A stretch of DNA of 64,000 nt, taken from Ginglymostoma cirratum. Lineage: Eukaryota. The notes under the pieces are model-generated. The model was not told where the DNA came from, made no database searches, and was given only the letters and a program-made list of their open reading frames with translations. The first letter of the stretch is position 1. Each line of letters opens with the position of its first letter. The DNA is taken from positions 21,294,262 through 21,358,261 of the forward strand of contig JAHRHZ010000029.1 of the NCBI GenBank assembly GCA_024137785.1, given 5' to 3'. Below, piece after piece: positions 5,500 through 62,179 of this stretch. A program made the translations under genes and the position numbers.

Positions 5500-8169
5500 G
5501 TCGGGTACATGTTGCAGTTCAGTCTGATCATTTTTTCTCTCTTTCACCCTCACATCCAGGTGTCCTTCATGTCTTCACAGACAGAGCGCTCGTGTACTTC
5601 TTCCAAGGTGATACCTTGTGAATGTTGCTCCAGTCCAATGCTGTGAATGGTTCCGCTTCTGTGAATCGCCGTAAAGGGCAATCATTTTCCATATATAAAG
5701 TAATAAATTTAAAACGACGACTGCGCGGGTTAAAGGAAACGTGTCGGCGTTTCTGAAGAGCCCCAGATATAAAAGATCGTTAAGTGTTACGTTATATTTC
5801 TCAATCGTAATTAAACTATCATGGCAGTTGGCATTTTATAGGACTGATTATATTTGAGTCACCTCACACAAAGTAGATTTTTAGTTGCAGTTAAGACTTT
5901 CTTTGTTCCTTCTATTTTTGCTTCCAAAATGACTTGCGTAAAGTACTGCACAGATGCATTACATTGAAATACTGTATCTGTGTGCCCAGTGCACTTCTAA
6001 TTAACGTGATCTTTCACAGGTCAACTTTTTCTTTCCTGGAGTTTGGACTGACGTTTATTTTTACAGTATTGGATCAACTCTGATTTGCATGCCTAACGCA
6101 CATCGAAATGTAGTTCACACAACCAAAGAGGGCAGGCTGAGATTTTATCAGGTTCTGAGATGTGGGAACAAAGAAACTCAGCTTAGCCTGAGTCAATAAA
6201 TCGGACCATCCACGAGCCTATATTTCACACAGCGAACATTTCTACATAAATGCATGCAATTATGGAGGTGTAAAGTGTCCTGAAGCATCATTATACTCGA
6301 GTCTGCGTGCGCTCATGTTTTCTAAAATATGGCGAATTTAGCTTTCTTTCATTATTTGACAGATGTGCTGAGTGATGCAAATCAAAATGAGTCTGAATTG
6401 TGCAAATACATATAAATGAAAGCGCAGCTTTAATTTAGTAAATGCTGATCGTAAATTATTGCCCAGACAGATTGTACATCGACGATAAACTCTTTCTATT
6501 TAAATGAAATAATGTGCTCCATACCTCGTTGTTATAGTCTTTATTGATGACTAATGTAGAAGGGGTGGTCTGCATAGCCTTCCCCGGTCTGTGACCCTCC
6601 GAATAAACAATCATTAAAAATATAAAGAATGTGGAATTTTCCCATCCAGTGGCTGTTGTTTAAAGCAGCAACAAATCACTGCCAGCTGCCCTCAGTCAAA
6701 CAGTAGGAGAGTTTCAATATTTTCCTGTGTATTTTTACAGAAACTTTACAGCAAATGTTCTGAACGAGAATTGCGTGTGACATTAGAGGGAACTCGGCAG
6801 AGATACAGCAAGAATTGGAGCACCTTCGGCGGTTTCCGATACCATCATTTTCCATTAACATGGACTAAATTTGGATTATCGCTCGAACCTCCCGCGTTTA
6901 ATCTTCAGGAAGAAAGTTTTACACTTTCTAAAAAAAAACCCAAGCCGTTCGAAGGATATTTAAGTCATGTTAGCAAAAGATCCCGCGCTCTGTTTGATTT
7001 CTGTATCGGTTAAATAAAATTTTCACGAGATTAAACTGTTTGCCCTATTAAATTTAAATTGTCACGAAGTGCCAAACTCGTGTCTTGTTTAGACGTCCCC
7101 GGTAGACCGTGTCAAATACAAATAAAGCGTCGGGGATAACAAAACATAGCAGGAATTTGAAATCCTTACTTTCACTTGCGATTTTACTATCAGACACTAC
7201 CTGATGTTGTCTGACCACACGGGAAGCTCAAAGTGCAGCCGATTCATTTAAATGCAATTGGCCCTTGTAATATTGGATCTCAATACTCCTTAAGACTGAT
7301 GAAAAAATGCTGTCAGTTTTACAATATTACAATACTAGTCAACAATGATAAAATACTATAAGCTCTTCAGGAAAATCTAAATTAATATTATCTAATATTA
7401 TCCTCAACATCATTCGGGGATGCATCAAGTGGATAGTTTTTTTAAATATTCAGTTCTTTTAAACGTGGCATTTTCTTTAACTTAGGCGATATAAATATCA
7501 AATTAGCAAATTAATACATTTGTTTTTTTAAAAAAAGCAAAGGGAAGTGATGGCGGTCCGTCCAAAGTGTGATTTTTTTTCTCTCTTGATTTAGGGAGAG
7601 AGAGAATTGTGAAGCAAATCTATCGCTGTACAAATAGCCTGAGGTGGAACAAAGTTCATGTGGGGGTCTTTATATGTAGAAGAGAATGACCCGAGGAATA
7701 TGTTAGGTCCACCTGCAGTGTCCCGGAAGACATACAATGAATCGTATTGTACCCACGCGCAGATTCACTTCGAAAGCAAAAACCACACTCAAACCAAGGG
7801 CGAAATTAAAACCATTCCAGGCAAAACGATTACAGACTATATCCATTTTCACCCATAGTACTCGAGTGCTCACTGGACCAATGATGCCTCAATAGTTGTC
7901 TCTACGTTTATTTCATTGTCTATTTTACTTTAATTAGCCAGGCTTGCAATTATTAAAGGGATTGTATTGCGTGTGTGTGTGTGTGCACGCGGGCGCGCTC
8001 ATGTGCTTTAAGCTAGAAAAGATTCGTTATTTTCATGCGGTCATTTTTCCAGCATTGTCTGCATAAGGTCAGTTGCAGACACTGTTCCGATGATTTGTCA
8101 ACATTTTCTGCGGATGAGTTAAGGTTTGCAATGGAATGATTACAGAACTACTGCCCACGCATCACTGCT

Positions 8170-8525
8170 ATTGATAACGAATCGGTTGCAAGCGTGGGTG
8201 TATCTCAGGAGCAGGTATTAATCGATTACAAGTGTGAAGGTGCCTCAGCGCTCAGTTATTAATTGATTACAACTGTGGAGTTGTCTCAGGGGCCGGGTAT
8301 TAATCGACACCAAGCGTAGGTTATCTCAGAAAGCAGTAATTAATCGATTAAAAATGTGGGGGTGCCTCAGTGCTCAGGTATTAATCGGCTGTAAGCGTCG
8401 GGCTGTCTCAATGTCGAGGTACTAATCAATTATATGTGTTGGGGCATGTCAACACCCAGTAATTAATCGATTATAAGTGTTTCAGCACCTACCTAATCGA
8501 GTATACATGTCGATGTATCTCAGGA
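8170..8525. repeat. Degenerate ~41-bp minisatellite (9 units) with TAATCGATTA cores
   Basis: Cores start at 8179, 8219, 8260, 8301, 8341, 8382, 8423, 8464 and 8494 (spacing 40-41, last 30). Approximate unit: GGTATTAATCGATTACAAGTGTGGGNTGTCTCAG-N7. Confidence 0.9.
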
Positions 8526-9719
8526 CGCAATGACTGTCGATGCTAATTATAAAATATAAGGACAATTGGCCTGTATAATTATTGAAATTGTATCCATATA
8601 TTGACGGTTCATAATGAACATCTTAAAAGCCACCTTGCCTTGGATTTTGAATGATTCAGCAAGAGACTGTGTTATTAATTTTATAAATAATACTGGGCTG
8701 TTTGATAAAGTGAAGTCTCATTAGAATTATGTTTGAAAGACAACAGGCCAGTTTCCACATTGATCTATTTACACGCACCAATCTTGTGAAGAAGTCAGCC
8801 TGCGGCTTCTGGGGAACATGGAAAAGACCATGGCTTTATAATACCGACATTGTCTAAAATTAAAATCTGAACCAATTCAAAGATTAAAACAAAGAACAGC
8901 ATCTGGGATTTCTTGATCGTTCTTTAACGAAAGTGGGCACGGACACTTTGCAGGTTCGGAGTCAAGCATCACAGATTCTGGGAGTCATACTGGGCCCTCG
9001 GTGCCTCTGTCACAATCCTGTGTAGCCCCAAAACGGGACGAACAAATACCCTTCACACATCTCCAAATGGACTGGCACCTCAGAAGAGTTAGGAAAGGCA
9101 TTGAGTTAAGGGGAAGCCACCAAACACATTTAACGCACTGTCTAGCTGTTTGAATGGGATCTCAACAATTTGTCTGTGTTTTAATTGAAGAAAATGTTAC
9201 GGCATAAATTGTTCCTACTCAGCATGTGAAAAGGGAGCTGATCTCACACTACTTTTGACTGATTCGCCTCCCATTTCTATATTCTCTCGCGCGGTTGCTG
9301 CCGTGTAAAAAAATCGGTAATACATATAAGCATCACTCTTTAGAGAGTAGGAACAGGTTCCACACTTCCAGCTAAATCCTCCCACATTGCGAGGTACACA
9401 AGCCAGTGGTGCGTTAACCTTTAGCAGCGAGCTTTTACCCGCTCTCTCCCTAAAAAATTAAAATTCACTTATTCTTTAAATGGGAATAGCTTCGAACTAT
9501 TCAATCGACATTACTTCCTAAAGATAAAAATATATTATTGATTTTGTCTTTTTAAAAATGAAATCTCCCTGTGTCCTACACGTATAATATTGCCTGAATT
9601 CAGAACATTTTATTCCAAAGGTATTTCATGTTTATTTAATCTTTGAAAGATGAGGAACGATCATCTTAAAGAACGCAATTTCAGTAGAATGGTAAAAACA
9701 GGAAAGTTTAAAGCAGTGT

Positions 9720-10423: not shown

Positions 10424-11830
10424 ATGCAAGCTCGTTACTCGGTGTCGAGTCCGAACTCGCTGGGAGTGGTGCCCTATCTGAGCGAGCAGAATTACTACCG
10501 GCCCGGCCCGGGATACACCGGGATGCCTGCTCCGATGGGTATGTACCCGCACGCAGCTCACGAACAGTACGCGGCGGGCATGGCTCGATCATACGGACAC
10601 TACACCCCTCCTCCGCAACCCAAGGACATGGTGAAGCCTCCTTACAGCTACATCGCCCTCATTACCATGGCCATTCAGAATGCGCCGGACAAGAAGATCA
10701 CTCTGAACGGGATCTACCAGTTTATCATGGAGCGCTTCCCCTTTTACAGGGAGAATAAACAGGGTTGGCAAAACAGTATCCGCCACAACCTGTCCCTGAA
10801 CGAGTGCTTCGTCAAGGTGCCCCGTGATGACAAGAAGCCGGGCAAGGGGAGTTACTGGACCCTGGACCCGGACTCTTACAACATGTTCGAGAACGGCAGC
10901 TTCCTGAGGAGGAGGAGGCGCTTCAAGAAGAAAGACGCCGTGCGGGAGAAAGAGGAGAAAGAACGCCAGGGCAAAGAGGCTCCGGGCCGGCAGCAAGCGG
11001 CCGCAGGAGACACTGAGAAACACACCGTGCGGATCCAGGAGATCAAGACGGAGAACGGGGCGCCGTCCCCGCCGCCTCCGCCTCCGCCGCCGAGGCTGGC
11101 CGGTCCCCCTGCCCTCAGCATGGTGCCCAAGACCGAGAGCCCGGAGCCCAGCAGCGGGCACAGTCACAGTAGTAGTAGTAGCCCATCCAACAGGTCCCTG
11201 AGCCTGGATAGCCACGAGCACCAGGCCTTCACGGTGGAGAACATGGTCCCGTCTCTGAGAGGCTCCCCCCACGCCTCCGGTGAACTCAACGCGGCCTCCC
11301 GGACAGGTATCAGCCCCTCGTTACCCCTCAGCTACCCATCGAGCCAAACGTCCATCTACAGCTCCTCCTGCAGCCATAGCCTGAGCTCGGCTACTGCTGG
11401 CACCTACCACTGCAACATGAACCTATACTCCGGGGAGAGAGCCGCGCACATCGCAGCGAGCGGCGTCGACGAGGCTCTACCCGAATATTCAATACCCCCG
11501 AGCAGCAGTAGCACCGCCGCCGCTCCGTCCTTGAGCCACGGTCTGAGCAACGGTCAGGACGGGGCCGGGACCGGGGCAGGTCGACTCGCCTCCTGGTACC
11601 TCAACCAGGCGGGCGATCTGAGCCATCTGACCTGCAGCGCGTACTCCGGACAGCAACAGAACATCCACACGGTCCGGGAAATGTTTGAGGCACAGCGAAT
11701 CGGCCTCGGCAACTCCGCCGTCAGTTCCGCGCACGCCAATGGGAATAGCAGTTGTCAGATGTCGTTTCCCCCAGCCCAGACACTTTATCGCACCTCAGGT
11801 TCGTTTGTCTATGACTGCAGCAAGTACTGA
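10424..11830 (+). CDS. FOXC1: Forkhead box protein C1 (single exon, 468 aa)
   Basis: [20 protein letters not shown]-terminus; forkhead domain [30 protein letters not shown]...[35 protein letters not shown]...RRRRRF (~10634-10924); C-terminus [12 protein letters not shown]...[19 protein letters not shown]1-diagnostic residues ([19 protein letters not shown]) and GMDS synteny. The true start is ATG 10424, not the TTG at 10403. Confidence 0.97.
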
Positions 11831-22604: not shown

Positions 22605-22739
22605 TCAGAGATAAAAGGTACTGCAGATGCTGGAGAATCCGAGATAACAAGCATGGGGCTGGATGAACACAGCAGGTCAAGCAGCATCATAGGAGCAGGA
22701 AAACTTGACGTTTCGGGCCTAAACCCTTCATCAGAAAAT
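22605..22739 (-). mobile_element. Young Penelope-like terminal repeat with intact minimal hammerhead core
   Basis: Reverse complement TTTCTGATGAAGGGTTTAGGCCCGAAACGTCAAG...; about 90 nt identical to 56942-57034. Flanked by GGTTTGTA (22597-22604, 22740-22747). Confidence 0.85.
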
Positions 22740-31639: not shown

Positions 31640-31897
31640 GTAAAAACAAAAGTGCCGGAGAACATCAGCAGGCCTGGCAATATCCATGAAGAGAGAAACA
31701 GAATTACCATTTTGAGTCCATATGTCTCCTCATCACAACTGTAGCAGTTCTGGAGTTCTGAGTTCTGAAGAAAAATCATTCTAGACTCGAAACATTAATT
31801 CGGTTTCTCTCTCTACAAATACTGCCAGATATGCTGGGTTTCCCCATCACTTTCTATTTTTATTTCAGATTTCTAACATTTGCAGCATTTTGCTTTT
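31640..31897. mobile_element. Head-to-head inverted pair of Penelope-like terminal repeats
   Basis: Minus copy ~31640-31740 and plus copy ~31762-31897 (CTGAAGAAAAATCATTCTAGACTCGAAACATTA). Confidence 0.7.
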
Positions 31898-34674: not shown

Positions 34675-35218
34675 CACTGAGTCATATACCTATCCAGATG
34701 CCTTTTAAATGTTGTAATGGTACCAGCTTCCACCACTTCCTGTGGCAGCTCATTCCATTCACGCACTTCGCTCAGTGTGAAAAAAGTTGCCCTTAGGACC
34801 CTTTTAAATCTTTCCTCTCTCACCTTAAACATATGCTCTCTAGTTTTGGACTCCCCAACCCTGGGAAAAAGACCTCGACTATTCACCCTATCCATGCCCC
34901 TCACGATTTTAAAAACCTCTAAAAGATCACCCCTCACCCTCTGTTGCTGCAGGGAAAATAGCACCAGCCTATTCAGCCTCTTCCAATAGCTCAAACCCTC
35001 CAACCTCGGCAACCCATCCTTGTAAATCTTTTTCTGATCCCTTTCAAGTTTGGCAACATTTTTCCCAAAGAAAGGAGACTAGAACTGGACATAGTATTCC
35101 AAAAGTAGCCTGACCATGTCCTGTACAGCTGCAACATGACATTCTGGCTCCTATACTTAATGCACTGACCAATAAAGGCAAGCAAACCAAACGCCTTCTT
35201 CGCTTCCCTGTCTACCTT
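34675..35218 (-). mobile_element. CR1/HER1 LINE ORF2 C-terminal fragment
   Basis: RFTRM..PRLEGLSYWKRLNRLVLFSLQQQRVRGDLLEVFKIVRGMDRVN...WNELPQEVVEAGTITTFKRHLDRYM, frameshifted. Confidence 0.92.
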
Positions 35219-46007: not shown

Positions 46008-46137
46008 GAGATAGTAGGAACTGCCGATGCTGGAGAATCTGAGATAAAACATTGTGGAGCTGGATAAACACAGCAGGCCAAGCAGCATCAGAGGAGCAGG
46101 AAAGCTGACGTTTCGGGTCGAGACCCTTCTTCAGAAA
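46008..46137 (-). mobile_element. Penelope-like terminal repeat with intact minimal hammerhead core
   Basis: Reverse complement CTGAAGA-A-GGGT-CTCG-ACCC-GAAA-CG-TC (46134-46107). Flanked by TAATAACTTCT (45995-46005, 46153-46163). Confidence 0.85.
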
Positions 46138-47069
46138 AAGAAGTAATAACTATAATAACTTCTCATTTCCCAATGCAACATCAGTATGATTGAAAGATGT
46201 CAGAAACCGAAACTGTTCGCTTTCAGATCATCTTCAGATGTGGTCAGGGTGCAGTTTTTCTTCCAGTTGGAGTTTAACCAATCCATCGTTAAGAACTATA
46301 TACCAATAGTTATCTACAGCCGAAAGGACAACCTCAGTCTACTCTGTTCTAAAAACGTATTGTAAAAACAGTAACTGCAGCAAATACTCAACAATTCTGG
46401 CAGCAACTGTGGAGACAGAAATGGAAGGCTGGATAATATATTGCCAGCAGGATGCATATTCAGCAGGCATTACATAAATAGGACAGGTGCCAGCTGATCA
46501 CCTTGTAACCCACCCTCCAGCTCATCCCTATTATAGATGGGTGCTGAAATTGCCCACCAGATGCACGTAAATAATTAAAGGTCACATGAGCTTGTTTAAT
46601 GTCAACTGACCTCAATATTATTCTGTTCATGTCATGAAATGGTTGCATGTGCAACCAATGGCAGTGGATTTTTTTTTAAAGTGTGAAAAAGAAGGGGGTT
46701 ATCATCTTTGGGGGGGGTCCCTTTGTGCATCAGGCTTAACCCCCAATTCCCCACAGAAGAAAATAGCTCCTTCTTTCCTTACCTATCAACCATTTAGAAA
46801 CTTTGAAATTCATTAAACCCTCCTAGCCCAATGCCCTTATTCACCTAGGTCCAGGATCCCATTGGGCCTTCATCCTTGAACTGGTTGCAGTGTCGGAAGA
46901 TTGGCTGATAGTTCCAGAGGGGAAGATGTCCACTCACTGATTGAACTCCTAAATATGCACTAATTTAGCATGCCCACAGCCTGATATGGCTCAAAGTCTG
47001 GAGATTGGCCATCAAACTTCCTCCACCAACTTCTGTACACTTGTGTTCAGTGTAAAGAGTTCAAGTCCT

Positions 47070-50520: not shown

Positions 50521-50741
50521 AGAATATGAAGAGATTAAGGAATTAAGCATTAAGACGAGTAAAAACTGAAAATGCTGGAAATAGCATCTGTGGAGAGAGA
50601 TATAGAGTTAACAATTCACACATGATAGCTTTTCATCGGAACAGTTCTTAAGCAGTTAGGAATACTTCACAGTGATGTTCAAAATCATGAAGGGTTTTGA
50701 CAGAGTAAACAAGAGAAACTGTGCAGTGGCAGAAGGGTTGG

Positions 50742-51268
50742 TTCTGGTCTCTTTGCTAGACGAAGGATGTTGTGAACCTTGAAAAGATCCAGAAAAGATT
50801 TACAAGGATGTTGCCAGAGTTGGAGGGTTTGAGCTATAGGGAGAGGCTGAATAGGCTTGGGCTATTTTCCTTGGAGCGTTCGAGGCTGAGGGGTGACCTT
50901 ATTGAGGTTTATCAAATCATGAGGGGCATGGATAGGGTGAATAGCCAAGGTCTTTTCCCCAGGGTAGGGGAGTGCAAAATTAGAGGGAATAGGTATAATC
51001 TGAGAGGGAAAAAATTTTTAAAGAGAACAAAGGAGCAACTATTTCATGCAGAGGGTGGTGAGTGTATGGACTGAGCTGCCAGGCAAAATCATGGAGGCTG
51101 GTACAATTACAACATTGAAAAGGCATCTGGATGGATACTTGAATAGGAAGGGTTTACAGGGATGTGGACCAAATGCTGGCAAATCGGACTAGATTAATTT
51201 AAGATATCTAGTCAGCATGGAAGGTTTGGACTGAAGGATCTATTTCCATGCTGTGTAAGTCTATGACT
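50742..51268 (+). mobile_element. Younger CR1/HER1 LINE 3' end
   Basis: LEKIQKRFTRMLPELEGLSYRERLNRLGLFSLERSRLRGDLIEVYQIMRGMDRVNSQGLFPRVGE; tail ending CTATGACT. Nested in an older CR1 (~50670-51545). Confidence 0.92.
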
Positions 51269-55267: not shown

Positions 55268-56251
55268 TGTCCTTTAAGTCTTTCCTTTCTTAAAGGGAAG
55301 ACCTAAACTTTTCAACCTTTCCTGATTGCTGTAATCTCTTCAGTTCTTGAGCCACTCTTGTGAATATTTTATGCACTTTCTCTTGTACTTCTATGACATT
55401 TTTAACATATGGAGATTTGATTCGGTTTCCTACATTTAGGATTTCCTTGAGTCCTGATGAAAGGTCATCTGTCTGAATTGTTAACCCTATTTCTTTACAT
55501 GGCTGCTGCTTGATCTGCTGGTCATTTGCAGCTAGCTTTTGTTCTCGTTTTAAGTTTCCAGCATCTGCCATTTTGCGCTTTTGTACGAAGATTTTTTCTC
55601 TCTTTTTACTCATAGTTGACTAATGAATTTGTACTGTGGCAAGAAATAACATAAGGGTCAAAGTTGTTCATTTGCGGGTGTTTTGGGTTTAATATGTCTG
55701 AAAACAATTTAGCCAATTGCGCTGTTCAGCTTTTCCTAAAAAATGCGCAAGAATTGATTCGTAAGTTCTCGTGCACGCACAAATAAATATTTCAGCAATA
55801 GAAAATACCAGAGACACACTATTCACAACTTTTTGTGCTATGTTGTGAATTCACCTATTGTTTATCCAACATTAAATAGGCTTTGTCAGCTTAAAGAGAC
55901 ACACATCTATGCTTTAGCAGCAGGAAAACAGATGGAGGATGTTTATAAACACCTGAGACAAGCTAATGAAATTCTCATTTGAAAAGGTTTGATACCAATT
56001 TGGGGAAATGGAAACTTCACAGCAATGCTAGGAAGTCTACCTATGTATCCAGGTCATAGCTGAATTTTAAGCCCTTCATTAAATGGCTGCGGATTTTGTA
56101 CAGCTTAGGTTTTTACAAAACACCACATCACCAAATCACAGAATTGTTACGATGCAAGAGGCTTGTTTGGCCCATTATGAATGCACCAGATTACTGAATG
56201 ATCCTTGTGACTCAGTGCCATTCTCCCGCTTTTTCCCCATAACCCTAAACA

Positions 56252-57033
56252 GTGCTACACCTGCCCCCACACCTCCTCCCTCACCCCAATCCCAGGCCCC
56301 AAGAAGACTTTCCACATCAGGCAGATGTTCACCTGCACATCTGCCAATGTGGTATACTGCATCCACTGTACCCATTGTGGCTTCCTCTACATCGGGGAAA
56401 CCAAGCGGAGGCTTGGGGACCGCTTTGCAGAACACCTGCGCTCAGTTCGCAACAAACAACTGCACCTCCCAGTCGCGAACCATTTCAACTCCCCCTCCCA
56501 TTCTTCAGATGACATGTCCATCCTGGGCCTCCTGCAATGCCAGTGATGCCACCCAAAGGCTGCAGGAACAGCAAATCATATTCAGCCTGGGAACCCTGCA
56601 GCCCAATGGCATCAATGTGGATTTCACAAGCTTCAAAATCTCCCCTCCCCCAACCGCATCCCAAAACCAGCCCAGCTCATCTCCTCCTCCCTAAACTGTT
56701 TTTCCTCCCACCTCAAGCCCCACCACCATCTCCTATCTACTAACATCATCCCGCGCCCTTGTCCGTCCTCCCTGGACTGACCTATCTCCTCCCTACCCCC
56801 CTACCTACACTCACCTTTACTGGCTCCATCCCCGCCTCTTCGACTTGTCTGCCTCCTCTCCACCTATCCTCTCCTCTATCTATCCTCTATCCACCTCCCC
56901 CTCTCTCCCTATTTATTTCAGAACCCTCTTCCCCTCCCCCATTTCTGATGAAGGGTTTAGGCCCGAAACGTCAAGTTTTCCTGCTCCTATGATGCTGCTT
57001 GACCTGCTGTGTTCATCCAGCCCCATGCTTGTT
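56252..57033 (+). mobile_element. 5'-truncated Penelope-like element (Neptune-like), GIY-YIG endonuclease remnant plus terminal repeat
   Basis: FTCTSANVVYCIHCTHCGFLYIGETKRRLGDRFAEHLRS...PVANHFNSPSH, frameshift near 56540, then RLQEQQIIFSLGTLQPNGINVDF. Pyrimidine-rich 3' region. TSD ACCCTAAACA (56242-56251, 57034-57043). Confidence 0.92.
56941..56976 (+). ncRNA. Minimal type I hammerhead ribozyme motif
   Basis: AUUU-CUGAUGA-A-GGG-UUUAGG-CCC-GAAA-CG-UC^AAGU: full catalytic core, 3-bp stem II, 4-bp stem I, palindromic ACGU in place of stem III. Confidence 0.75.
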
Positions 57034-57805
57034 ACCCTAAACACTGTCGCTGTTTAAATAATCATCTAATGTTATCTTCATTGTCTTGATTAAAATTTGC
57101 TTCATCACACTTCCAGGCAGTGCATTCCAAACTTGAACCATTCACAGCATGAACAAGTATTTTGTCACATCACTTTCACTTCTTCCAAAAACTACCTTAT
57201 GTCTGTGCACTTTTGTTCTCAATCCGTTTATGAGCGGAATCAGTTTCTTCTCCATCTATTCTGTTTAAACGCCTTATTATTTTGAAAACGTCAACTTCTC
57301 TTAGCCTTTTCTGCTCGAAGCAACCTTTCCAATCTATCTTCATAACTAAAGTTTCTCAACCTTCAAACCATTCTTGCAATTCCCTTGAGCACTCTATCCA
57401 GGCATTCATCCTTCCTAAACTGTGGTGCTCAGGATTGGATACAATACACCAGCTGAGGTCTAACTCATGTAATATAAAATTCAGCATAACCTCCTTGCTT
57501 TTGTAGTCTTATACATTAATTAATAAAACCTATGATACTGTATGCTTTATTGACTGTTCTCTGCCTGTCCTTCCAGCTTTAATGCTTTATGCACATTCTT
57601 TTCCCACATCTTTCTGATTCTGTATCCCTTTAGGGTACTGCCCTTTGTTTTATGCTGTATTTTCACGTCCTTTCAACTAAAACATATCACTTCACACTTC
57701 TCTGCATTGAATTTCATCTGCCACCTACCTGCATACTCTTTTTTGAAGTTGGTACACTGCCTTCCTCACATTTTACATTATCTAACTTCCCATAAACAAT
57801 GCTAC

Positions 57806-61395: not shown

Positions 61396-62179
61396 AATCT
61401 ATCCTCTGTCCTCTCCTGAAGGCATTGCATTAAGTTGGGCTCTGGCTCCAGTTGCTGGTCTTCTGTACTAGGCAAATGGGTGAGGCTTGACAATAAGTTT
61501 CAGCTATCTCACTCACACCACTGCTGAGCTTTATCCTGCCCACACGTGGACTTTTCATCATGGTGTAGTGGAGACAGCAACCAGGTGAACAAATAATAGT
61601 TGACTGTTTCCTGCTACTCCTGGAGTGCCATATTGATTGCAGTGCTCCTATTCTCTCTTCAGCTGAGATCAGCTAACTCTGCACATTCGAGGGATATTGC
61701 TAATTTCTACAGAGATGATAATAATTTTGCCACCATCAGAGACAGGCCAAAGGTCAAGTTAAAAAAGTCGTGGTGAATGTATAGTCATATTCCTGCACTG
61801 GTGCCATATTTACTGAGGTCTGAATTTAGAGGAGATGTAATAGAAGTGTCCAATACCATGAACAGTTTTGACAGAGTAATTAATTATTTGCAGTAGTGGC
61901 GATAAGGGTTGGTGACCATTGGACACAGATGCAGAAGTACCAAAGATGACATAAGGAAACTTTCTTTTCTGCACACAGATTGTTACTGTACGGAATATAT
62001 TGCTTGATAAAAGGGTGGTGGAAGGAGATTAACGAATAACATTCAAAGAGAATTTAATCAATACTTGAAGGGAAAAGATAGGAATTAATTGGGTAACTTT
62101 ACGAAGAGATGCCCGGGCCTTTCACAGTAACAAAAAAGCATCAACTTAAGCATGCTAGAATGCTGTAATTTCATCAGAA

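Follow-up and report, generated by a model that had tools for sequence, protein, structure and literature searches.

In the nurse shark Ginglymostoma cirratum, a tandem array of nine recognisable ~41-bp units and a partial tenth lies 1.9–2.3 kb upstream of the FoxC1 start codon. The array is old, carries five P2 homeodomain sites near FoxC1, and is confined to this locus within the window, by which we mean the whole 64-kb stretch of DNA analysed. Weak purifying selection on the homeodomain core would make it a homotypic cis-element born by duplication, and we put the probability of this reading at about 0.5. The palindromes, the history of the units, and the pattern of substitutions within them are presented below, together with the readings that compete for the same evidence.

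The FoxC1 locus

The gene that the initial annotation had named as the neighbour, FOXC1 about 2 kb downstream, is indeed FoxC1, on the evidence of both its Forkhead domain (PF00250, E=3e-40) and its full-length similarity to known proteins. Its product matched FoxC1-like proteins of Stegostoma at 97%, and of Chiloscyllium and Hemiscyllium at 89%, all at 100% coverage. A poly-proline triplet repeat within the gene, at 11061–11092, specifies 8 prolines, as in Chiloscyllium; Stegostoma has 5, and Carcharodon and Hypanus have 2.

10424–11830, plus strand: coding sequence of FoxC1 in one ORF (468 aa), with the Forkhead domain spanning residues 71–156
2001–27500, no strand: CpG-undepleted domain holding the array and FoxC1, CpG observed/expected 0.79 versus 0.23 beyond 27.5 kb

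The CpG-undepleted domain spans ~25 kb, has fairly sharp edges, and resembles a DNA methylation valley. Cartilaginous fish are reported to be globally methylated, as other jawed vertebrates are (PMC5437953). From this and the CpG ratio, the 2–27.5 kb interval is probably an unmethylated developmental-gene domain.

Structure of the array

Tandem Repeats Finder (TRF), alignment, profile scores and a lag scan all delimited the array, whose end is 1872 bp from the FoxC1 ATG. As the initial annotation had suggested checking, TRF was run on the window, and it recovered period 41 with 66% matches and period 122 with 78% matches. The nine diverged units were real and had been placed and counted correctly; we add the partial tenth.

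8157–8552, no strand: diverged tandem array, nine cores and partial unit 10 (TRF, alignment, profile, lag scan)
8157–8196, plus strand: unit 1, prefix unrecognisable, degenerate core at 8179, tail kept (profile scores)
8219–8228, no strand: unit 2, perfect P2 palindrome TAATCGATTA (motif match)
8260–8269, no strand: unit 3, P2 site TAATTGATTA (motif match)
8301–8310, plus strand: core of unit 4, reduced to an intact 5' half (alignment)
8337–8350, no strand: unit 5, perfect P2 palindrome at 8341, with TAATTA overlapping at 8337 (motif match)
8382–8391, plus strand: core of unit 6, reduced to an intact 5' half (alignment)
8423–8432, no strand: unit 7, P2 site TAATCAATTA (motif match)
8460–8473, no strand: unit 8, perfect P2 palindrome at 8464, with TAATTA overlapping at 8460 (motif match)
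8494–8511, plus strand: unit 9 core and tail, 5' half intact; 30 bp past unit 8, ~11 bp of prefix deleted (profile)
8512–8552, plus strand: partial unit 10, prefix kept, core degenerate (profile)

Cores start at 8179, 8219, 8260, 8301, 8341, 8382, 8423, 8464 and 8494, with a weak tenth at ~8534, giving core-to-core spacings of 40, 41, 41, 40, 41, 41, 41, 30 and 40 bp. Units 2–8 pass leave-one-out profile tests. Scored against a profile of units 2–8, unit 1 is genuine in its core and tail (p=1e-5; prefix p=0.11), as is unit 9 (p=3e-4; prefix lost), and unit 10 is recognised by its prefix alone (p=2e-4), in a register off by one base. The sequences one unit beyond the array on either side were not clearly units (profile p 0.015–0.8).

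In a lag scan of the 64-kb window the array was the sole clear outlier, at 0.59 against a runner-up at 0.45. Nothing else in the 64 kb is a long diverged tandem array, and the FoxC1-proximal place of this one counts toward a control element. Searches with PWM, nhmmer and blastn found no second copy of the array in the window, in keeping with the expectation that its units would not be dispersed. With units tens of bases long, arranged head to tail at a single locus, the array is a minisatellite.

P2 sites

TAATYRATTA, the P2/H.I2 homeodomain dimer site of Pax3/7 (PMC4538810; PMC8287922), is present in five of the nine cores and lost in the other four. The form at 8219, 8341 and 8464, TAATCGATTA, is the core of the standard P2 probe (PMC3033397); that at 8260, TAATTGATTA, is the Pax3/7 myoblast ChIP consensus as quoted in PMC4538810; and that at 8423 is TAATCAATTA. 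Motif search thus confirmed the positions that had been reported for the three perfect and two variant sites, and the attribution of TAAT-NN-ATTA to the PAX3/PAX7 dimer agrees with the papers cited. Two of the perfect cores, in units 5 and 8, have an overlapping TAATTA beside them. TAATC occurs in seven units and ATTAAT in six, and ATCRAT is in the same five units as the intact palindrome.

The window holds six TAATYRATTA where 0.67 are expected, a count that 0/100 shuffles reached; the resulting p value is too favourable, since repeat copies do not count as independent. The sixth instance, TAATTAATTA at 61877–61886, is the only one outside the array. A 41-bp unit contains TAATYRATTA by chance with a probability of 4.3e-4, uncorrected for the many other motifs that could have caught the eye, and this speaks for a control element. 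So does the restriction of changes within intact sites to the two middle variants that are tolerated, but these are also plain products of CpG deamination, which speaks against it.

History of the array

Units 1–8 have a mean identity of 0.63 and a Jukes-Cantor distance of 0.52. With an assumed range of 0.5–1e-9 substitutions per site per year, this loosely dates the array to some 260–520 million years. The date is loose because the pedigree mutation rate of the epaulette shark, 7e-10 per generation (PMC10587355), gives an impossible age.

The proposed origin by tandem duplication is supported. Ongoing copy-number change is not expected among minisatellite units as diverged as ~63% identity; active VNTRs have near-identical units, and the mean identity here is 0.63. 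With its units only ~63% identical, the array looks like a frozen relic, unlikely to change copy number today, and the suggestion that copy number could tune FOXC1 finds no support in it.

8179–8422, plus strand: three-unit block duplication, 8179–8300 versus 8301–8422, 90/121 identical, with the best match in its first two units

At least one block duplication occurred in the array. In gapped comparisons, spacers three units apart were 0.73 identical versus 0.57–0.65 at other lags (p=0.013, four lags having been tested). Two pairs (0.86 and 0.81) carry this signal, the other two being at background level (0.61 and 0.63), and an ungapped test of the lag-3 excess gave p=0.08–0.46. In the ungapped comparison no two units resemble each other more than 5 and 8 (0.75), a hint of another block duplication. 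The three-unit higher-order repeat of 122–123 bp seen by the initial annotation therefore stands as one block duplication, and is clear nowhere else in the array. That duplication explains the 122-bp rhythm of the perfect sites, for which no separate cause is needed. Since the perfect sites share a position in the duplicated block, the three are probably not independent of one another.

Constraint on the core

Conservation was counted in units 1–8, leaving out units 9 and 10 as partial. Consensus matches made up 69/80 (86%) of core positions versus 171/236 (72%) in other columns (Fisher p=0.015). AT-richness is ruled out as the cause, since A/T and G/C spacer columns were kept equally (0.724 vs 0.725). 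The two half-sites behave differently: the 5' half kept 38/40 positions (Fisher p=0.001 versus spacers), and the 3' half kept 31/40, which is spacer level (p=0.57). The earlier claim of a core better preserved than its spacers thus holds for the 5' half and fails for the 3' half. Eight of the nine 3'-half changes sit in the three units without an intact site; such all-or-none loss is compatible with either relaxed selection or common descent.

Evolution at equal rates was simulated 5000 times for each tree, using the ML tree and star trees. Retention of TAAT..ATTA at a fixed position in at least five of eight units had p=0.006 with the former and about 0.002 with the latter, and the excess of core over remaining retention had p=0.016–0.026. 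Correction for choice of any window raised p to 0.05–0.11 (ML tree) and 0.015–0.06 (star trees). The best 10-column window had p=0.03–0.09, and the best-kept window is displaced 5' of the palindrome. Among-site rate variation was not detected (BIC 628.0 for HKY, 630.0 for HKY+G4).

Units 1–8 contain two one-base indels versus ~7.9 expected at the ratio of gaps to mismatches (42 to 432) among dispersed repeat pairs in the window, with p=0.015, or 0.046 counting the 11-bp deletion, in a test that is biased because arrays with few indels are those that get noticed. Survival of CpG in the cores was rejected as a sign of selection, since the whole 2–27.5 kb domain keeps its CpG. Taken together, the evidence for constraint on the core is real but modest.

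Candidate binding proteins

ATCRAT is a CUX/ONECUT-type core, and because it marks the same five cores as the palindrome, the sequence cannot separate homeodomain from CUT candidates, though the full palindrome favours Pax3/7. As all five intact sites fit TAATYRATTA, Pax3/7 would be the best single candidate factor, an assignment we make tentatively and with the odds against it, the remaining weight going to other homeodomain or CUT-class proteins. Pax7 dimerises on the P2 palindrome, which ranked fourth of five probes by EMSA, below composite, TAATTA and paired-domain sites (PMC8287922). The composite paired-homeo motif of Pax7 pioneer targets, RTGASTAAT (PMC12934573), occurs twice in the window and 0 times in the array, where no TGAC adjoins any core; by this motif the array does not belong with such targets. 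Factors of DUX type were set aside, as sDUX and DUX4 are described as inactive on cores spaced by 2 nt (PMC10514451). A paired-domain-like pattern in the unit tail was likewise dropped: it is in two units only, and no source for it was found in PMC4538810.

The argument from cross-repression of Pax3 and Foxc genes in somites finds no support. Repression is documented chiefly for Foxc2, and is called indirect for both Foxc2 and Foxc1 (PMC3018477). In Pax3-induced mouse mesoderm, Pax3 peaks are reported as enriched for paired-type motifs only, homeodomain motifs appearing in the peaks of myoblasts and fibroblasts (PMC6390996). There mouse Foxc1 is down-regulated at day 6, and the peak-annotation table names it under expression alone. 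Mouse Pax3 apparently lowers Foxc1 indirectly, and mouse need not reflect shark.

We take mouse Foxc1 to lie at chr13 31.79–31.82 Mb. Among the rows listed in three mouse peak sheets, no Pax3 peak falls in that interval, a soft negative because a peak is assigned to only 21% of regulated genes (PMC6390996).

Control element or neutral relic

As a duplication-born homeodomain site cluster, the array began with a founder, a 41-bp segment upstream of FoxC1 with one P2 palindrome. Local tandem duplication added monomers first and later at least one block of about three units, the step that the alignment records. Homogenisation then stopped, leaving the units to decay to their present identity. The remnant would be a homotypic cluster of five dimer sites and four half-sites in ~330 bp, giving graded input to FoxC1 transcription from promoter-proximal DNA that is probably unmethylated. 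Should Pax3/7 bind, it would more likely activate FoxC1 than repress it directly in cells that express both genes (early paraxial or neural-crest), because Pax3 is mainly an activator (PMC3018477).

The evidence for such an element consists of the five sites, the core retention, the simulations of intact sites, the pattern of 3'-half changes and the scarcity of indels. Nearly as likely is a neutral relic, an extinct minisatellite in which the founder unit happened to contain the palindrome. It would owe its persistence to slow shark evolution and a FoxC1 domain spared methylation decay, and its apparent core conservation to chance plus the shared ancestry of duplicated units. Several results count against the element and for the relic alike, namely the corrected p values (those on the ML tree), the lack of detected rate heterogeneity, the 3' half at background level and the block duplication. 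The relic also draws on the loss of the dimer site in four of nine cores and on the low shark mutation rate noted above (PMC10587355). A human–zebrafish comparison gives a further point of this kind, since among the conserved elements described in PMC9597995 none lies just upstream of FOXC1 or corresponds to the array; many such elements have been lost in teleosts (PMC11034925). Also weighing against the element are the displacement of the best-kept window to the 5' side, the missing composite site, the low EMSA rank of P2 for Pax7, the lack of a Pax3 peak assigned to mouse Foxc1, the unremarkable CpG retention and the bias of the indel test. Against the relic, it needs three joint coincidences: a specific motif in the founder, its better retention (p=0.002–0.006) and a promoter-proximal place. 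The few indels are also against it. If the array is neutral, it serves as a warning that a motif in a founder unit can yield a functionless 'homotypic cluster', and that motif-count p values mean little within a repeat.

A further reading moves the constraint to the 5' half (ATTAATCG/TAATC), recognised by monomeric homeodomains, or by CUT-class proteins at ATCRAT, in place of a Pax3/7 dimer. We consider it unlikely; it is a sub-case of the favoured explanation with a different protein, so that their weights overlap. It would account for the concentration of conserved positions in that half, and its 8-mer is intact in five of eight units, as often as TAAT..ATTA. The numbers of units with TAATC and ATTAAT, and the coincidence of ATCRAT with the intact sites, are in line with it, as is the report that the amphioxus Vent homeodomain likewise dimerises on P2–P4 probes (PMC3033397). 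On the other side, all five ATCRAT cores keep the full palindrome, which those factors do not need.

Helical phase of the sites

The reading of 41 bp as about four helical turns fails for free B-DNA, of which the mean period of 40.7 bp makes 3.88 turns. At 10.5 bp/turn the five intact sites are spread round the helix (R=0.06), as are the three perfect ones (R=0.10), ruling out phasing on one face of free DNA. Nucleosomal DNA has a pitch of ~10.2 bp per turn. At 10.17–10.2 bp/turn the five intact sites align with R=0.97–0.99 and the ten cores with R=0.95–0.98, even across the 11-bp deletion, which preserves the phase at this pitch. The pitch was chosen post hoc, and 3% of periods of 20–100 bp align as well at 10.2; by arithmetic, roughly one in four periods near 41 bp corresponds to 10.0–10.6 bp/turn.

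An ancient shark-lineage FoxC1 element could have had its period kept at four nucleosomal turns (4 × 10.17) as a landing pad for Pax3/7, but we regard this as improbable. It is equally improbable that, as such a pad would have it, three or four Pax3/7 sites per nucleosome share one face. The post hoc pitch tells against this idea, as does the absence of the composite motif tied to Pax7 pioneering. Were it true, it would imply a direct link from Pax3/7 to FoxC1, of a kind unseen in the mouse data examined.

Other origins and other repeats

It is highly improbable that the array is a remnant of a transposable element (its subterminal repeats) or an outlying copy of a dispersed shark satellite. 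Several dispersed repeat families in the window would suit such an origin. Standing against it are the lack of a second copy in the 64 kb, the lack of inverted arms flanking the array, the lack of any match in phages or plasmids, which also rejects an origin from those, and dissimilarity to the SINE-like copy at 376–725 (p=0.58 and 0.26). A supposed likeness of the spacers to a shark SINE core failed against that same copy, and SINE origin was rejected.

The SINE-like element at 376–725 is on the minus strand, is presumably a shark tRNA-derived SINE, and has no second copy in the window (blastn, E 0.01). Next to it, at 750–838, is a 44-bp two-copy tandem duplication with 82% matches. A 49-bp inverted repeat (2360–2408 and 2650–2698, 88% complementary, 241 bp apart) lies at the edge of the CpG-rich domain and is possibly a MITE-like remnant; another, of 77 bp, at 31642–31860, is 70% complementary with a 65-bp loop. 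A 93-bp sequence is found at 22645–22737 and 56942–57034, 100% identical and in opposite orientation, and with relatives at 1437–1533 and 46008–46138 (80–88%) it forms a young dispersed family. There is also an inverted dispersed pair of ~395 bp, at 34692–35085 and 50741–51132 (79% identical).

A structured RNA or small coding sequence can be dismissed: folding of the plus strand is slightly stronger than in shuffled copies (z=-1.68, 6/100), but the minus strand does not stand out (z=-0.87), palindromic cores pair mutually by construction, no Rfam or tRNA match was found, and the longest stop-to-stop frame within the array is 52 aa. Elsewhere in the window, a 203-aa ORF at 56083–56694 scored 23 bits to a Brr6-like Pfam profile with a cut-off of 25, and is probably spurious.

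Relation to known systems

No description of this array turned up in the titles and abstract openings of the literature on FOXC1 cis-regulation and on Pax3/Pax7 palindromes, a scope outside which most subscription papers fall. Nothing on FOXC1 upstream elements was found in the preprint 10.64898/2026.03.17.712295 either. FOXC1 is described as dosage-sensitive, with its proximal regulation poorly known, and in zebrafish, upstream intergenic DNA that is not conserved also influenced foxc1 levels (PMC9597995). If homeodomain proteins bind it, the array would be an unusually legible tandem-duplication enhancer, with nine internal replicates showing which bases selection kept. If those proteins are Pax3/7, it would offer a possible direct Pax3/7–Foxc link in cartilaginous fish.

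The array shares its locus with the FOXC1 cis-elements CEU1 and CED1–3, which in human are 221 kb upstream or 2.9–290 kb downstream, none of those described being a proximal upstream repeat (PMC9597995). With Pax3/7 P2 sites it shares five exact matches, among them the EMSA probe core and the ChIP consensus, and two of its sites are overlapped by the Pax7-bound TAATTA (H.I-2) motif (PMC8287922). It differs from them in lacking the paired-homeo composite and in the regular 41-bp lattice of its predicted sites. Tandem-repeat enhancers and minisatellite VNTRs reported to alter expression (PMC13373173; 10.1101/2020.11.03.367367) likewise consist of head-to-tail units of minisatellite size near a gene; the units of the array are too diverged for copy number still to be changing.

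Site clusters born by duplication are a known kind. Regulatory modules have been described as growing by local duplication, with sites of common origin no more than ~50 bp apart that diverge by point mutation (Nourmohammad and Lassig 2011, PMC3188502). The array resembles these modules in its neighbouring sites of common origin and their later divergence by point mutation; where that work dealt statistically with pairs of sites in fly enhancers, the predicted sites here belong to one shark array of nine to ten units.
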